Below, one piece after another: positions 15,386 to 20,627 of a stretch of 25,936 nt of DNA. This DNA is from a virus (taxonomy: Duplodnaviria; Heunggongvirae; Uroviricota; Caudoviricetes), in IMG/VR virus record IMGVR_UViG_2778261085_000012, positions 1 to 25,936 of that record; one strand, given 5' to 3'. Made by a program: the position numbers and the translations under genes. Every line of letters begins with the position of its first letter. Position 1 is the stretch's first letter. The notes below the pieces were generated by a model, which ran no database searches, was not told the DNA's origin, and worked only from the letters and a program-made list of their open reading frames with translations.

Positions 15386-15784
15386 CTCCAGCTCCTGTAT
15401 CAGTCAGATAATTTCACGACGCTTTCCTGCTTATTGCCATCATCGACGGTCAGACTCTTACGCAATCCCACCGCGTTAACTGCATGTTCTCGCCGCCTCA
15501 GTGCGATTTTGACGGCCTTACCTTTCACCCCATCAAATCAAAAGCCCTCACGTCTTTTTCACGCTCAGCGTGAGAAATACAGCCATTCTGTTGTGTTGCT
15601 GCGACATCGTTCAGGGGATGCTATTTACCCCCTGAAACGCGGGCTGTTCCCCCGTCACCTGCGCGCAGAAAAAGCGCGTTTTTTTGTGCACGTACGGATC
15701 CTTGACGGATCCAGCCACCACGCGGGCCGGAAGTACAAAAAGTCGTTCAAAAAAATTGTGCAAACTTGTGCACTATCGTGCAAA

Positions 15785-15815
15785 CAAAAAAAAGCGCCTT
15801 ATCGGCGCTTCAAAA
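15785..15815 (-). terminator. Rho-independent terminator (minus strand)
   Basis: On the minus strand: AAGCGCC gataa GGCGCTT followed by a T9 run; sits just 3' of the 15819..16088 ORF. Confidence 0.6.
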
Positions 15816-15818
15816 GTA

Positions 15819-16088
15819 TCAATTGTTGCTGTGTATTAATCGCCAACCACGAACATATGCTTCATAGGCATCTCTGTGCCTTACAGTTCCAGCCTGGCTA
15901 AACGGAATGTTAGCTAAAACTAAATCATTCTGAGCCATAGCGCGTCCTTCAAGCGCATCTTTTATGCCTAGCTCAAAAGCACAGGCAGCGCATTTGTGCC
16001 GACCTTCTTGTCCTTGATATTCAGGGAGAGACAGAAATGTTGGGTTATAACGATGAGGGTTCTTGCAAATACCTGTTTTAGCCCGCAC
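15819..16088 (-). CDS. hypothetical 89-aa Cys/His-containing protein in the cargo slot
   Basis: GTG start preceded by GAGGT; intrinsic terminator directly downstream; contains CxxxH...HxCxxC. Overlaps a probably spurious plus-strand ORF. Confidence 0.35.
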   Translation of the reverse strand: MRAKTGICKNPHRYNPTFLSLPEYQGQEGRHKCAACAFELGIKDALEGRAMAQNDLVLANIPFSQAGTVRHRDAYEAYVRGWRLIHSNN

Positions 16089-16111
16089 TTTATTTACCTC
16101 ATAGGAAAAAT

Positions 16112-16250
16112 ATGCGTGCCTTTACAGAGGTGCGTGTAAGCAATAAAATATACGACGCACATTTTGATTTACTTCGGAAGGCACGCATATCAGGTTAAGT
16201 GAGTCCGACCGAGTTTTACGCCCCAATAGTTGCTGCTATTGGGGCGTTTT
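16112..16250 (+). other. candidate small transcript (sRNA or 28-aa peptide) ending in an intrinsic terminator
   Basis: Promoter-like TTTACA-N17-TAAAAT; 13-bp long-range inverted repeat ATATGCGTGCCTT/AAGGCACGCATAT; possible 28-codon ORF with RBS AGGA; terminator hairpin at the 3' end. Confidence 0.25.
16219..16250 (+). terminator. Rho-independent terminator (plus strand)
   Basis: CGCCCCAATAG ttgctg CTATTGGGGCG followed by TTTT. Confidence 0.6.
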
Positions 16251-16452
16251 GCATGGACAATGCCGCGCAATTATCTTGTCGCTCACAATGCGAACGATCT
16301 TACAAAAAGGCACATTACTGTCAAGATAATTGATCGTTTTAATCGATAGATAATATACAATCTATTTGTTTAACAGATCGATTATTGAAGTAAGTGTGCC
16401 AAATGGAATGATACTGTTTCTATAAACGTGAGCATTTTTCGCGCAGATGCTT

Positions 16453-16764
16453 TTACTCAGGAAATAACGCCCGGATATTCCCAGCCATCTGGCTGGTTAT
16501 TTTAGCCACTGGTGCAGACTGTGCTTCAAACTTTTTTGAGCTGATTTGTGTCACAGGTAACATCTCATCATCAGCCCATGCGGCCAGTCGGTAAGCCTCT
16601 GCCGGATTCGTCTTCAGAAGTGCCAGCCCGGCCAGAAAAGCCACGCGTTGGCCGCTTTTGCGGGCTTCTGGTGTAAGGCTGTCCAGCCAGGCGCATGCTT
16701 CTCCTTCGTTCTTGACGGCAGCTGGCTTCAGATAGAAACTTATCCGTCTGGTTGGTGTCGTCAT
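16453..16764 (-). CDS. parR: ParR-like centromere-binding protein (plasmid R1 ParR/StbB family)
   Basis: 103 aa; RRISFYLKP...AWLDSLTPEARKSGQRVAFLAGLALLKTNP parallels the R1 ParR N-terminal region; located immediately downstream of the ParM-like gene. Confidence 0.65.
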   Translation of the reverse strand: MTTPTRRISFYLKPAAVKNEGEACAWLDSLTPEARKSGQRVAFLAGLALLKTNPAEAYRLAAWADDEMLPVTQISSKKFEAQSAPVAKITSQMAGNIRALFPE

Positions 16765-16768
16765 TGGT

Positions 16769-17728
16769 TTACTCCTTGTTCATTGCGTACAGCCCATTAA
16801 CCAGAGCAAACTGTGGCACCCCGTCCGCGATGAAAGTCGCATTAACTCCGCAGGCTTCGCGGATAGCGGGTGCCACAATCTCCGCTCCTCCACCGACAAC
16901 CATCACCCGCCCGTAACCCGAAAAACCCGCCAGCGCGCGGATCACGCGTTGTTTCAGTGTTTCCTCCTTTTCACGAATAACTGCCATCAGGCTGGCGTAA
17001 TGCGCGTCATTGTGGATGTGCTGGCGCAGCCAGGCTTCATCGTGGCGATGTTCGATAATGGTACTGGCGATGTGGTGACTGGTGCGCATACCGTTGGTGG
17101 CCATCACCGACAGCACGGCATCGGCCATCAGAGAAACGCCTACGTGTGGATCGCAAAACACCTGGCTGATACCTGCCAGTTGCCCCTGAACCTTTGCCAC
17201 ATCCAGCGTGGTTCCGCCCAAATCCACAATCAGCAGGGATTCAAACGGACTCATGCCAGCCAGTGCTTTAAAGCCAGCCGGAATGGATTCAGGCATAACC
17301 CGCACGTTACGGATAGTGAATGCCTCGCCGTTCTGGTACTCCACCGGGCGCATGACGTTCGCTTTTTTGCGGTTGATGTTGGCCATGTCCGGCTGTGCGT
17401 TTGTGTCGAAATACTCGCTCAGTGGCAGGGTGACAACCACATCCACTTCCTGTGGTGTGATACCTGATTTGACCAGCGCATGATGAATGGCAATCACATT
17501 CACATCGCTGTACTGGTATTGCGTGTCAGTTGTCTGAACAAAGCGATCGCTGACCGGATCAAAATCATAGCGCACGCCATCAATCATGTAGTTTGCGGGT
17601 TGCGTGCCACCGAACGGCGCAGACCATTCCGACTTGAAGCTGTTCGGGCTGATGGCGTTGCGACGTTCGCCGTTCTCAGTCCATGCCAGCTTGATGTTGG
17701 TGGAGCCGTCGTCGATACAAATTTTCAT
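16769..17728 (-). CDS. parM: ParM/StbA-like actin-family ATPase
   Basis: 319 aa; MKICIDDGSTNIKLAW..., YSDVNVIAIHHAL, MPESIPAG, LIVDLGGTTLD and VMVVGGGAE are collinear with plasmid R1 ParM. Confidence 0.85.
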   Translation of the reverse strand: MKICIDDGSTNIKLAWTENGERRNAISPNSFKSEWSAPFGGTQPANYMIDGVRYDFDPVSDRFVQTTDTQYQYSDVNVIAIHHALVKSGITPQEVDVVVTLPLSEYFDTNAQPDMANINRKKANVMRPVEYQNGEAFTIRNVRVMPESIPAGFKALAGMSPFESLLIVDLGGTTLDVAKVQGQLAGISQVFCDPHVGVSLMADAVLSVMATNGMRTSHHIASTIIEHRHDEAWLRQHIHNDAHYASLMAVIREKEETLKQRVIRALAGFSGYGRVMVVGGGAEIVAPAIREACGVNATFIADGVPQFALVNGLYAMNKE

Positions 17729-17759
17729 GTCGATTTTCCTTATGTTGATTAATTAATCG

Positions 17760-17870
17760 TTTACGGGATTCTGAAATCCCGTTTTTGCCTGTTTTGTGTG
17801 CGCTTCATATATCGCGGCGCGTTTTTTGCTCATTTACGGGATTTGTGAATCCCGTTTCTGTCTGTTTTTT
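17760..17870. repeat. two copies of an approx. 40-bp repeat, each with a perfect hairpin, spaced about 71 bp
   Basis: TTTACGGGATTcTGAAATCCCGTTTtTGcCTGTTTT and TTTACGGGATTtGTGAATCCCGTTTcTGtCTGTTTT; copy 1 is in the A/parM intergenic region, copy 2 is inside the A 3' end. Confidence 0.7.
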
Positions 17871-20627
17871 GTTTCCACTGGTCAGGCCACCCCGCAGCAG
17901 GTCTGCTTTGCGGCGGGCGCGTTCAGTGGTTTCACTGATTCTCAGTGCGTGCTCTGCGTCGCGGATGGCGCGCAGCATGTCAGAAAGCACGGTAACGGGT
18001 GTTTTCATGGTGTTCTGGTCTTGCTGAAGTGTGGATGCCAGGCGTGCGGCGGCTTCGGGGTCTGATGCCCCCAGCTGTTCCAGATAGCTGGCGACCGGGT
18101 TATGGCGGATCTCCGTGCTGCTTACGCCGTGATTACGGCTCAGGCGCTGCCAGAGCTGCGTGATTCGGCTGTCCGGTCGGGTATCTGGTTTGCGTACAAT
18201 TTCAAATCCCTGCGGTGCAATGATGCTGCCGTCAACGTACAGACTGCCGCCCCGTAACAGGTGCAGCATCTGTTGTTCACCGATATGCAGGCCGAGAGAT
18301 TCGGCAGACTCCCGCCATTCTTTAGCGAGTAACTCGTGGTTATCAGGCAAAGGTCGCGGCTGTTTGCGGCTCTGTGTCCAGTTCTGCATTTCATCGCTGC
18401 TGTTTTTTGCCTGTTTGTCACGAAGCGAACGCATCAGCGCTCGGCGTTCGTGCCGTTTCAGTGAGCGCATCCATTCATTTACTTCAACGCCGTCAGGAAG
18501 CTGCGGCCACGGTGCTGGCCGTTCTTCCGGCTGTTCTGTTCCGTTGTTGCTCGTTTCCTGTACACGGGGACAGTTATTGCCACGAGTCCAAGGGGCGGCA
18601 GGGCCGCCCTGAAGGTCAAAACCATTTTCGCGGGCGCTGTCTTCCGTTTCCGGTTTACGTCTTACCAGTTTCCAGTTATCCGGATGCGTGCATACACGGG
18701 AGGATTCCCCGATGAGTGGTGACCAGATCCCGTAAATCTGTACGCTCTGTTCGCCGTAATCATTCAGCTCATCTGCGAGGTCGTAGGCGGTGCGAATCAG
18801 GTAGTCTTTGCGTGGAACAAGTACGCCGCCCTGTTTTTCAATGTAGGTGGCAAAACACCCGGCATCGGCGGCAGCGAGTACCGCATCCATTGCGTCATCT
18901 TTCAGTCGTTGCGGGCCTTCCGGGTTGCGTGCCATCTGGCTGGCAAGGCGGCGCAGTTCACGCCACACCTGACGGGAGGGGATGCCAAAGAACTGGAACT
19001 GGCGGACCCGATGAAGGCGCGCCCAGCCGATGGCGCGCTCCACACTCTCGGCCATTGATTTTCCGGTTTCGTGGTCAACGCGTGGCTTGCCCGTTTTCGG
19101 GTCGATGCCATCCACGGCGCGGCTGTCCAGGTTCTTTCCGATGTAGGTCGCGATATAGCTGGTTGGTGTGCCTTTTGAGCCGTCGACATACTCCGCCTTA
19201 AAGCGCGGAGTAATATCATTGCCCAGCTCGTGGCGGTCTTCCTGAATGGCAATATCGCGGGTGATGGCCACGATGCTGTCGATTTCTTCCGGATGAGCAA
19301 AGACCATCATATGCCAGTGCACGGTGCCGTCATGGTGAGGCTCCACCGTGCGGATGCCATACCAGCGCAGACCGTCGCGGTTCAGTTTTTTGCGGACTGC
19401 CGCAAAAAACGTGTTAACCAGGTAATCGCTGGAGTCGCGCATGGTGGCCCCGTTCCATTTGGGATTCGGATTACCGTTCTCTGTTGTGGCGTGGTATTTT
19501 GACGGGCAGGTGACAGTCAGAAACACCGCTCTGTCGCCACGGGCTTCGGCCAGAAGTTCCAGCCCCTTCATGGTGGCCATCATTTCTGCCTTACGGTGAA
19601 CCGGGTTACTTACTCCCGCGTAATACACTGTCTCGAGATCAATCGTGAACCCGTCTTCGTTTTCCAGCATGAAACTTTTCAGGAAATCGCGTGTTTTCTC
19701 GCGCTGCGCGCGAAACTCGCTTAATGCGTCCTGACTCAGATAGGGCGATGTTTTTCTGGAAACCAGACAGGCGGCGCGGAGTTGTTCTTCCCGCCACTCG
19801 CAACGTAACAGCCACAGTTTGCGTTTCCACCATTCCGCACAGGTCAGGCGAAGGATTGCACCCGGCAGCAGCTCCGTGTCCGGTTCGTTCCTCCGGTCTT
19901 TGTCTGTTGTCAGTGCGTCATAATGTGGAGGCATGGCGTGCAGGTGTAACGCCATGCGGGCCAGCATCTGATACGCCTTCAGCGTTACATCCATGGTCAG
20001 CTCGCCATCGGTCGCGCCAAAGCCATCGCAGAGTTTTTCGAAAGTGCTGCTGAACATCGCCGCCGTCATGGTGGCCAGCGTCTGTATCTGGTGTTTGTTG
20101 AGCTGCGGCAGGTAAAGCAAATCATCCAGGCGTTCGCGTCCGGCAAGGGAGCGATAACCCGGTGTCAGCCAGCGGTGGTCGGTGCGGTCCAGACGTTCGA
20201 ATATTTTGCGCAGGGTTCCGCGTGCATAGCGTTCCGCCTGCCAGCTCTTTTTGCCTTTCCGGCGATCGGCTTCCTGTTTTTTGCGCAGGAAGGAGAGGTG
20301 GCGAATAAGCGGATCGCGCAGATAGGACGGCAGCAGGCGCAGCGAGGCCATGGCTTCATCCACCGCGCCGCGTGCCTGTTTTCTGGCGTCTCCTGCCAGT
20401 GTGATGGTTTTGTCCTGTTTTTCCTGTGCGTCCAGGTTTTTATTAATCAGGTTGCCCAGCGGCGTGGCGGAGAACGCCGCATCAGCCATTTCCTGGCGGC
20501 GCTCGTTCTCTACCCGGTAGGCATCCAGCCAGGAGGAAAGCGCGGATTTAGGAGCGGGGATCCCCGTTCCTTCACGCCCCACTGCGTGGCGCGGTTGTTG
20601 CCAGTCCCTGATGTACTCTGCCGTCAT
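17805..20627 (-). CDS. A: replication initiation endonuclease A (rolling-circle, P2 gpA-like)
   Basis: 940 aa; conserved core ...LTVTCPSKYH...WYGIRTVEPHHDGTVHWHMMVF...YIATYIGKNLD...; longer than P2 A (about 760 aa as remembered). Confidence 0.9.
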   Translation of the reverse strand: MTAEYIRDWQQPRHAVGREGTGIPAPKSALSSWLDAYRVENERRQEMADAAFSATPLGNLINKNLDAQEKQDKTITLAGDARKQARGAVDEAMASLRLLPSYLRDPLIRHLSFLRKKQEADRRKGKKSWQAERYARGTLRKIFERLDRTDHRWLTPGYRSLAGRERLDDLLYLPQLNKHQIQTLATMTAAMFSSTFEKLCDGFGATDGELTMDVTLKAYQMLARMALHLHAMPPHYDALTTDKDRRNEPDTELLPGAILRLTCAEWWKRKLWLLRCEWREEQLRAACLVSRKTSPYLSQDALSEFRAQREKTRDFLKSFMLENEDGFTIDLETVYYAGVSNPVHRKAEMMATMKGLELLAEARGDRAVFLTVTCPSKYHATTENGNPNPKWNGATMRDSSDYLVNTFFAAVRKKLNRDGLRWYGIRTVEPHHDGTVHWHMMVFAHPEEIDSIVAITRDIAIQEDRHELGNDITPRFKAEYVDGSKGTPTSYIATYIGKNLDSRAVDGIDPKTGKPRVDHETGKSMAESVERAIGWARLHRVRQFQFFGIPSRQVWRELRRLASQMARNPEGPQRLKDDAMDAVLAAADAGCFATYIEKQGGVLVPRKDYLIRTAYDLADELNDYGEQSVQIYGIWSPLIGESSRVCTHPDNWKLVRRKPETEDSARENGFDLQGGPAAPWTRGNNCPRVQETSNNGTEQPEERPAPWPQLPDGVEVNEWMRSLKRHERRALMRSLRDKQAKNSSDEMQNWTQSRKQPRPLPDNHELLAKEWRESAESLGLHIGEQQMLHLLRGGSLYVDGSIIAPQGFEIVRKPDTRPDSRITQLWQRLSRNHGVSSTEIRHNPVASYLEQLGASDPEAAARLASTLQQDQNTMKTPVTVLSDMLRAIRDAEHALRISETTERARRKADLLRGGLTSGNKKQTETGFTNPVNEQKTRRDI

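Follow-up and report, generated by a model that had tools for sequence, protein, structure and literature searches.

A candidate parC-like centromere with two dyad boxes upstream of parM in a P88-like P2-type prophage

Two repeats at the junction of gpA and parM in a P88-like P2-type prophage probably represent the parC-like centromere of a type II ParM/ParR cassette, judging from their sequence and from that of related loci. An element of this kind is expected at this position, and its layout is unusual and undescribed: its two dyad boxes are separated by seven helical turns, no promoter was detected within the site, and the host is an integrating P2-like phage. ParMRC is a textbook plasmid-segregation machine, which is found here complete with an apparent cis site in an integrating P2-like prophage, and a literature search found no description of this gpA-parM cis site. 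A preliminary description of this DNA had proposed a centromere as one possible role of the repeats, and this idea gains support from sequence comparison in that the repeats mark the exact 5' boundary of the cassette, the two-box layout recurs in relatives whose ParM is 61-62% identical, and the layout tracks the N-terminal strand of ParR.

A parM-parR cassette and the repeats at its edge

The stretch of DNA analyzed here (25,936 nucleotides, hereafter the window) is a P88-like (Xuanwuvirus) P2-type prophage, whose 16.4-20.7 kb segment shows 96% identity to Citrobacter phage Shae_phiSM and Escherichia phage P88. The minus strand encodes gpA, followed by an R1-type ParM and then by ParR (Table 1). 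ParM matches R1 ParM (1MWK) with E = 7e-92 over residues 2-316, and parR begins 4 bp past parM. The locus contains what characterizes a type II (ParMRC) system, namely a ParM ATPase gene and a small ParR gene directly downstream of it, and, as expected of parC, a repeated element directly upstream of parM. ParR belongs to the StbB/ParR family of R1 and carries an N-terminal strand, RRISFYLKP, and a C-terminal tail, NIRALFPE, and the corresponding patterns (R-x-x-x-F-x-x-x-P in the strand and N-x-x-x-L-F-P in the tail) are common to phage ParR and plasmid ParRs; a PDB sequence search with ParR detected no solved relative. ParR occurs as sharply distinct alleles (83% and ~55% identical), in which residues 1-24 and the C-terminal NIRALFPE are constant and the middle part is swapped, next to a ParM that is 97% identical throughout.

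Table 1. Features of the gpA-parM-parR region (positions in the window; a dot marks features without strand)
Feature	Position	Strand	Remarks
gpA replication endonuclease, 940 aa, PF05840	17805..20627	-	final ~22 codons are cassette DNA; stop TGA 17805-17807
Distal 43-nt repeat unit	17830..17872	-	5' edge of the par cassette; overlaps the last ~22 gpA codons
Distal dyad box ACGGGATT-CACA-AATCCCGT (gene strand)	17836..17855	.	core GGG-N10-CCC 17838-17853, kept in Hafnia L214 and Plesiomonas L216
Spacer, 30 bp	17800..17829	-	gpA stop codon 17805-17807 and A6 tract
Proximal 43-nt repeat unit	17757..17799	-	within the 76 bp between gpA and parM
Proximal dyad box ACGGGATT-TCAG-AATCCCGT (gene strand)	17763..17782	.	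core 17765-17780, starts 52 nt upstream of the parM ATG
parM leader TTAATTAATCAACATAAGGAAAATCGAC	17729..17756	-	ATTAATCAA motif and AAGGA ribosome-binding site; near-zero diversity
parM, actin-like segregation ATPase, 319 aa	16769..17728	-	PF06406 2.5e-82, PF21523 3.3e-68
parR, centromere-binding adaptor, 103 aa	16453..16764	-	PF10784 (Plasmid_stab_B) 9.8e-24
Apparent portable parC-parM-parR cassette, 1,420 bp	16453..17872	-	94% identity to L050/L070 over the span
Candidate intrinsic terminator for the gpA-parM-parR transcript	15791..15811	-	adjoins 15782, where L050/L070 homology resumes

A repeat finder delimited the repeated element as two direct repeats of 43 nt each, which are 81% identical and lie 73 bp apart from start to start, and not about 71 bp as first described. 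The remainder of that description holds: there are indeed two elements of ~40 bp with a perfect hairpin (8-bp arms, ACGGGATT-N4-AATCCCGT), one of them intergenic and the other within the last codons of gpA. Eight of the 43 positions differ between the two copies, all of them outside the 16 arm positions (hypergeometric p ~0.015, by our own estimate). The spacer between them holds many of the region's variable positions, yet its mean diversity (0.067) is similar to that of the rest of the region. No further copies were found in either the window or the whole P88 genome. At up to three mismatches, the palindrome matches twice in the window against 0.07 matches expected, a number reached by none of 100 shuffles, and the complete P88 genome contains these two copies only. 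In a palindrome scan of viral contigs, ~113 of the 119 loci recovered (all but five or six) were the same gpA-parM junction.

The edges of the cassette can be placed by comparison with two loci that have other DNA upstream. In L050, a 773-aa gpA that is 31% identical to that of the window is followed by a 159-aa ORF, and both repeats are intergenic; in L070, the upstream position is taken by a different 145-aa ORF, which ends inside the distal palindrome in another frame. These loci share 94% identity with the window between 17870/17872 and 16453/16457; the homologous stretch begins exactly with the distal repeat, at its first base, and extends to the parR stop codon, and the DNA upstream is unrelated. 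Distal repeat, 30-bp spacer, proximal repeat, parM, and parR therefore form a portable 1.42-kb module that, by its sequence, has the anatomy of a parC-parM-parR locus. Because the repeats of L050 are intergenic and the ORF of L070 is in a different frame, it is incidental that the distal copy is coding in P88. Should the boxes be a centromere, the foreign C-terminal tail of P88-like gpA would be explained.

We also considered a coding explanation, in which both repeats are translated as TGF(T/Q)NPVN, in the gpA tail and in a 26-aa ORF, and a gpA origin or nick site. The first was rejected on account of the closed frame in L070, the distribution of variable sites over codon positions (6:8:7), and the T-poor strand; the second was rejected because the boxes follow parMR rather than gpA. 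The 26-aa ORF, MSKKRAAIYEAHTKQAKTGFQNPVND (17753-17833, minus strand), and the gpA tail, …KKQTETGFTNPVNEQKTRRDI (17805-17870), read the repeats in matching relative frame, and a 31-aa ORF extends across the distal repeat in L050. This reading of the repeats by the 26-aa ORF and the gpA tail is probably a side effect of the T-poor strand, as reading frames stay open where the gene strand is only 11-14% T.

A palindrome-anchored sample of loci was used solely for breakpoints and variants, because its selection biases it. A natural deletion corresponding to window positions 17669-16523 has removed most of parM and parR in L117, where both boxes are kept, and L024 has the proximal box only, beside a truncated parM and rearranged DNA.

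Conservation and alternative readings of the repeats

ParM identity does not fall below 94% in the P88-like family, and the strand RRISFYLKP is present in 84 of 84 ParR homologues. A covariation test has no power inside this family, and we therefore turned to relatives with a ParM 54-62% identical, which a ParM search identified in Hafnia, Plesiomonas, Serratia, and Enterobacter. In all of these, parMR is carried by P2-like prophages and lies between gpA and the ogr/portal genes (Table 2).

Table 2. Layout upstream of parM in the window and its relatives
Locus	ParR N-terminal strand	gpA identity	Layout
Window/P88	TRRISFYLKP	100%	two GGG-N10-CCC boxes at -125/-52 from the parM ATG, 73 bp apart
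L050 (E. coli)	TRRISFYLKP	31%	the two repeats retained, their palindromes the same as in the window in arms and loops
Hafnia L214	TRRVSFYLKP	33%	GGGATTGAGGAAACCC at -128, GGGTTCATTAAATCCC at -55, 73 bp apart
Plesiomonas L216	TRRISFYLNP	55%	GGGACAACAAAAACCC at -131, GGGACAACACTAACCC at -59, 72 bp apart
Serratia L217, L220	NRKISFYLKP	47-48%	18-nt inverted repeat, without box pair
Enterobacter L218	NRKISFYLKP	33%	inverted repeat of the Serratia L217/L220 type

The preliminary description had made conservation of the motif in elements with the same genes a test of its relevance, and such conservation was found for its core: Hafnia L214 and Plesiomonas L216, whose ParM is 61-62% identical to that of the window, keep two GGG-N10-CCC boxes with their spacing and position, in a context where spacer and flanks can no longer be aligned with the window. 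The background frequency of GGG-N10-CCC is 0.15-0.7 per kb, and in each locus only the boxes upstream of parM form a pair spaced by 70-75 bp. The ATTAATCAA motif of the parM leader is also present in Hafnia and Plesiomonas. The inverted repeat of Serratia and Enterobacter (GGAACGAAATAGAAAAAT / ATTTTTCTATTTCGTTCC) has arms 26-29 nt apart and lies 120-60 nt upstream of parM; it retains the CAGGCAAAAACGGGAA half-site, and its left arm is preceded by CAGGCAAAAAC, as in the proximal unit of the window. Serratia L217 has in addition a second palindrome, GCCGTTTAAACGGC.

The two-box layout is thus found in all lineages with a TRR(I/V)SFYL ParR, whose gpA is 31-55% identical, and the inverted repeat in those with NRKISFYLKP. 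The class of layout in these sequences tracks the N-terminal strand of ParR and not the type of gpA, and this makes it the best available pointer to ParR as the putative reader of the boxes; the association comprises two classes only, in lineages that share ancestry, which lessens its weight in favor of a centromere.

Variation in the E. coli population was analyzed on E. coli-type loci anchored on ParM and not selected on the palindrome (81 for box retention, 79 for diversity). Both boxes are kept in 81 of 81 loci, although only about half are perfect palindromes. Over the 79 loci, diversity of the arms (0.071) equals that of 4-fold degenerate parM sites (0.071), so that recent purifying selection on the arms is not detectable in this sample, a result that speaks against a centromere.

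It is unlikely, in our opinion, that the repeats act as gene-strand RNA hairpins in the gpA-parM mRNA, as a processing site or stabilizer that would uncouple parMR expression from that of gpA. The repeats are probably transcribed, given that no promoter was detected, and the gene-strand units are stable (-10.7 to -11.0 kcal/mol, z = -3.5 to -4.9). However, RNA folding, which had been put forward as a check, yielded stable hairpins of about -10 to -11 kcal/mol on both strands, and since both fold equally well it cannot tell them apart. Natural variants do not help in this respect: the common proximal variant GCGGGATTTAAAAATCCTGT retains all 8 gene-strand pairs via two G-U pairs, the common distal variant ACGGGACT... 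is mismatched (C-A) on the gene strand and forms a G-U pair on the other strand only, and as the two favor opposite strands there is no consistent strand signal. In Plesiomonas and Hafnia, dyad symmetry returns outside the GGG/CCC core (z ~ -2), but neither strand folds consistently better in the relatives. Among the eight boxes compared, three G-C pairs are invariant and the inner pairs 6-15, 7-14, and 8-13 are broken without compensation in 2-4 of the eight; the covariation score over these boxes was reached by 27 of 500 shuffles. Moreover, no Rfam match was obtained at E <= 1, the hairpins do not overlap the ribosome-binding site, and an RNA function would leave the conserved spacing of 72-73 bp unexplained. 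A symmetric DNA site for a dimeric protein accounts better for this pattern of pairing and variants than would an RNA hairpin specific to one strand.

Many DNA-binding dimers typically recognize dyad boxes, and the repeats might bind a protein other than ParR (a phage regulator, gpA, or a host nucleoid protein), or else be a recombination site that moves the cassette, as breakpoints coincide with the distal repeat in L050 and L070 and with the proximal one in L024. We consider this family of explanations rather improbable: the boxes accompany parMR even where gpA is only 31-55% identical and their layout tracks the type of ParR, the 1.42-kb cassette has no recombinase, the breakpoints fall outside the dyad core, at the outer margin of the repeat unit, and there are no additional copies in the phage genome.

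Similarly improbable is a functionless, neutral duplication left over from the formation of the cassette. It would agree with arms that vary in E. coli as much as synonymous sites, with the one or two arm mismatches seen in about half of the copies, and with L117, which has lost parMR yet retains the repeats. It would not account for a GGG-N10-CCC pair that keeps spacing and position at 61-62% ParM identity between flanks that cannot be aligned, for the absence of arm differences between the paralogous copies (0 of 16 positions), or for the presence of both boxes in all 81 ParM-anchored loci.

The role of operator or promoter, also suggested in the preliminary description, is not borne out, as there is no credible sigma-70 promoter on the gene strand. 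A consensus scan of the gpA-parM region returned 0 promoter-like sites on this strand, and the highest-scoring gene-strand PWM matches upstream of parM reached 1.7-2.6 versus a background mean of 5.1 (best per 200 bp). One match with a PWM score of 4.0 has its -10 element inside the parM coding sequence, and a weak match, TTCAGA-N16-ATTAAT, was rejected, nothing on the gene strand being above background.

Finally, the hairpins are very improbable as plus-strand intrinsic terminators that halt antisense transcription into gpA, although both units match the stem-plus-T-run pattern on the plus strand and fold there at -10.2 to -10.4 kcal/mol: the T-run of the distal unit is not continuous (TTTCTGTCTG), the T-run (the A-tract of the gene strand) is missing beside all four Hafnia/Plesiomonas boxes, whose stems are weak (3-4 G-C pairs and 10-nt loops), the E. 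coli proximal variant present in 16 of 81 copies breaks the hairpin at two positions through plus-strand C-A mismatches, and no plus-strand gene or consensus promoter is aimed at the site (plus-strand PWM 5.6-5.9, equal to background). A-rich sequence comes after the hairpins on the gene strand, where they are therefore not terminators for gpA either.

Comparison with known partition loci

The parC of plasmid R1 lies directly upstream of parM-parR and consists of two sets of five direct 11-bp iterons that flank the par promoter, which is autoregulated by ParR; it is curved and forms a U-shaped complex with ParR (PMC2241845). The phage junction resembles R1 parC in its location upstream of parM-parR, its two repeat blocks with a spacer, its A-rich strand, its A-tracts phased at 10.5 bp, and its homologous partner proteins. 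It differs from it in having two 43-nt units with one 20-bp dyad box each, in the lack of a detected promoter, and in belonging to an integrating P2-like phage replicon; in addition, the phage ParR is shorter (103 aa) and only ~25% identical to R1 ParR. A par promoter located inside parC and autoregulated by ParR, as in R1, was not found at the phage junction, which counts against a centromere.

The gene strand of the phage junction is 47% A and 14% T, and its A-tracts are phased at 10.5 bp with R = 0.59-0.78, a Rayleigh value reached by 0 of 1782 background windows. Corresponding values are 48% A, 17% T, and R = 0.58 for an R1-type parC (L127), and 20% A and 46% T, with T-tracts phased at R = 0.59, for the region upstream of parM in pOXA-48. 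Five loose A-tract 10-11-mers, roughly CAnAAAAC(A/G)G, are in helical phase at the phage junction and do not form a tandem array. A further argument against the dyad boxes is that these 10-11-bp A-tract units could instead be the sites of ParR, with the palindromes being incidental.

Moreover, all characterized ParRs bind direct repeats (PMC9426499), and two dyad boxes would be far fewer than the ten iterons of R1. The preliminary description had remarked that classical parC sites are direct iterons, in agreement with the literature (PMC9426499); here, each palindrome is nested in a longer direct repeat.

Putative parC regions of plasmids whose ParM is 50-52% identical (IncL/M pOXA-48, IncI, and a Pantoea plasmid) also have repeat blocks upstream of parM. 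Those of pOXA-48 are 73 bp apart, as are the phage repeats, and three copies of a palindromic unit, ATTACA-N2-TGTAAT, occur in the Pantoea plasmid. However, their sequences are unrelated to the phage boxes and most of the plasmid units are direct 10-bp iterons. No experimental characterization of these pOXA-48, IncI, and Pantoea regions was found in a literature search. In a pOXA-48-like IncL/M plasmid (L125), the putative parC at 1366-1478 is composed of CTGTATTTTT-type 10-bp iterons in two blocks, with T-tracts phased at 10.5 bp.

Short dyad sites are also the operators of the ribbon-helix-helix proteins Arc, MetJ, and CopG, which read them by the paired N-terminal beta-strands of their dimers, often with two dimers per operator. 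These are promoter operators, whereas no promoter is evident at the phage boxes, which comprise two sites 73 bp apart and would belong to a putative partition complex.

The SXT/R391 locus srpMRC is a type II partition locus of an integrating element, with a centromere in the 5' UTR and expression only on activation; its centromere, srpC, has four repeats, defined by MEME and EMSA, and SrpR has no recognizable ParR domain (PMC4489591). The phage cassette is similar in that it belongs to a normally chromosomal element, in that its putative centromere would lie in a transcribed leader before a ParM-like gene, and in that the promoter would be upstream and activation-dependent. Unlike the phage, the SXT/R391 element is conjugative, and the sequence of srpC is unrelated to the phage boxes.

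What we infer for the phage locus concerns ParR binding and its stoichiometry, DNA bending, expression timing, and biological role. The N-terminal strand RRISFYLKP of ParR would recognize the dyad boxes, the putative target being the conserved core GGG-N10-CCC with a half-site of roughly AAACGGGAT. At a distance of 73 bp, or ~7 helical turns, the two boxes face the same side of the helix, and the DNA around them is probably curved, given its phased A-tracts; bound ParR could therefore build a bent complex as it does on R1 parC. The C-terminal tail of ParR would then capture the ends of ParM filaments, which would push DNA copies apart. As there is no recognizable promoter, parM-parR is most likely transcribed by read-through from gpA, in the early lytic operon, and the system would consequently act on the derepressed, extrachromosomal phage genome and not on the quiescent prophage.

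A fuller scenario is possible but at present doubtful, in which the ParR of P2-like prophages recognizes a minimal centromere of two dyad boxes at a distance of seven helical turns in place of an iteron array, the promoter-less cassette is switched on only by the early operon, and ParMRC segregates or positions excised, replicating phage genomes. If it is true, a transient plasmid-like carrier state might exist in a family regarded as strictly integrative. If the boxes are a centromere, the cassette would be a compact 1.42-kb partition module with a dyad-box architecture simpler than R1 parC, and would offer an experimental handle on what plasmid partition does for an integrating phage; if ParR does not bind them, they would be a minor sequence curiosity.

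Distribution and genomic context of the cassette

We found the cassette in 1303 of 5426 complete E. coli genomes (~24%), at 1449 chromosomal places versus 2 on plasmids. This plasmid-type partition system is therefore overwhelmingly chromosomal and prophage-borne in E. coli, and a plasmid search with ParR returned prophage copies only. A Shigella locus (L005) is interrupted by an IS element and was uninformative. A scan of genome contigs with ParM recovered 3 species representatives only, one of which is a probable contaminant. A ParM of the enterobacterial prophage type, 97% identical, is present in a contig labeled as a Firmicute, 'Vagococcus sp.' (L133, NZ_JBQPOM010000071.1), which probably reflects contamination or mislabeling.

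The DNA that follows parR (15791-16452 in the window, and its equivalents elsewhere) is a variable cargo slot: P88 and L050 have a ClpX-zinc-finger protein there, Serratia L217 has HicAB, and L218 has a KAP NTPase. In the window, the slot is ORF-poor, and its far end is overlapped by a plus-strand ORF of 155 aa (15434-15901) without Pfam matches.

A hok/gef-family toxin gene is located in P88 (L130, NC_026014) at 34928-35068, outside the window, and also occurs in pZ1323PEC0009-2, so that one P2-like phage has counterparts of parMRC and of hok/sok, the two classical stability loci of R1. Under pZ1323PEC0009-2 (L223, NZ_CP148288.1), the complete genome of a P88-like phage has been deposited as a circular 'plasmid' of 34.5 kb; it may either be episomal or have been assembled from induced phage DNA. 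Its circle joins the integrase to the methylase/hok/ogr end, as expected of an excised phage circle.
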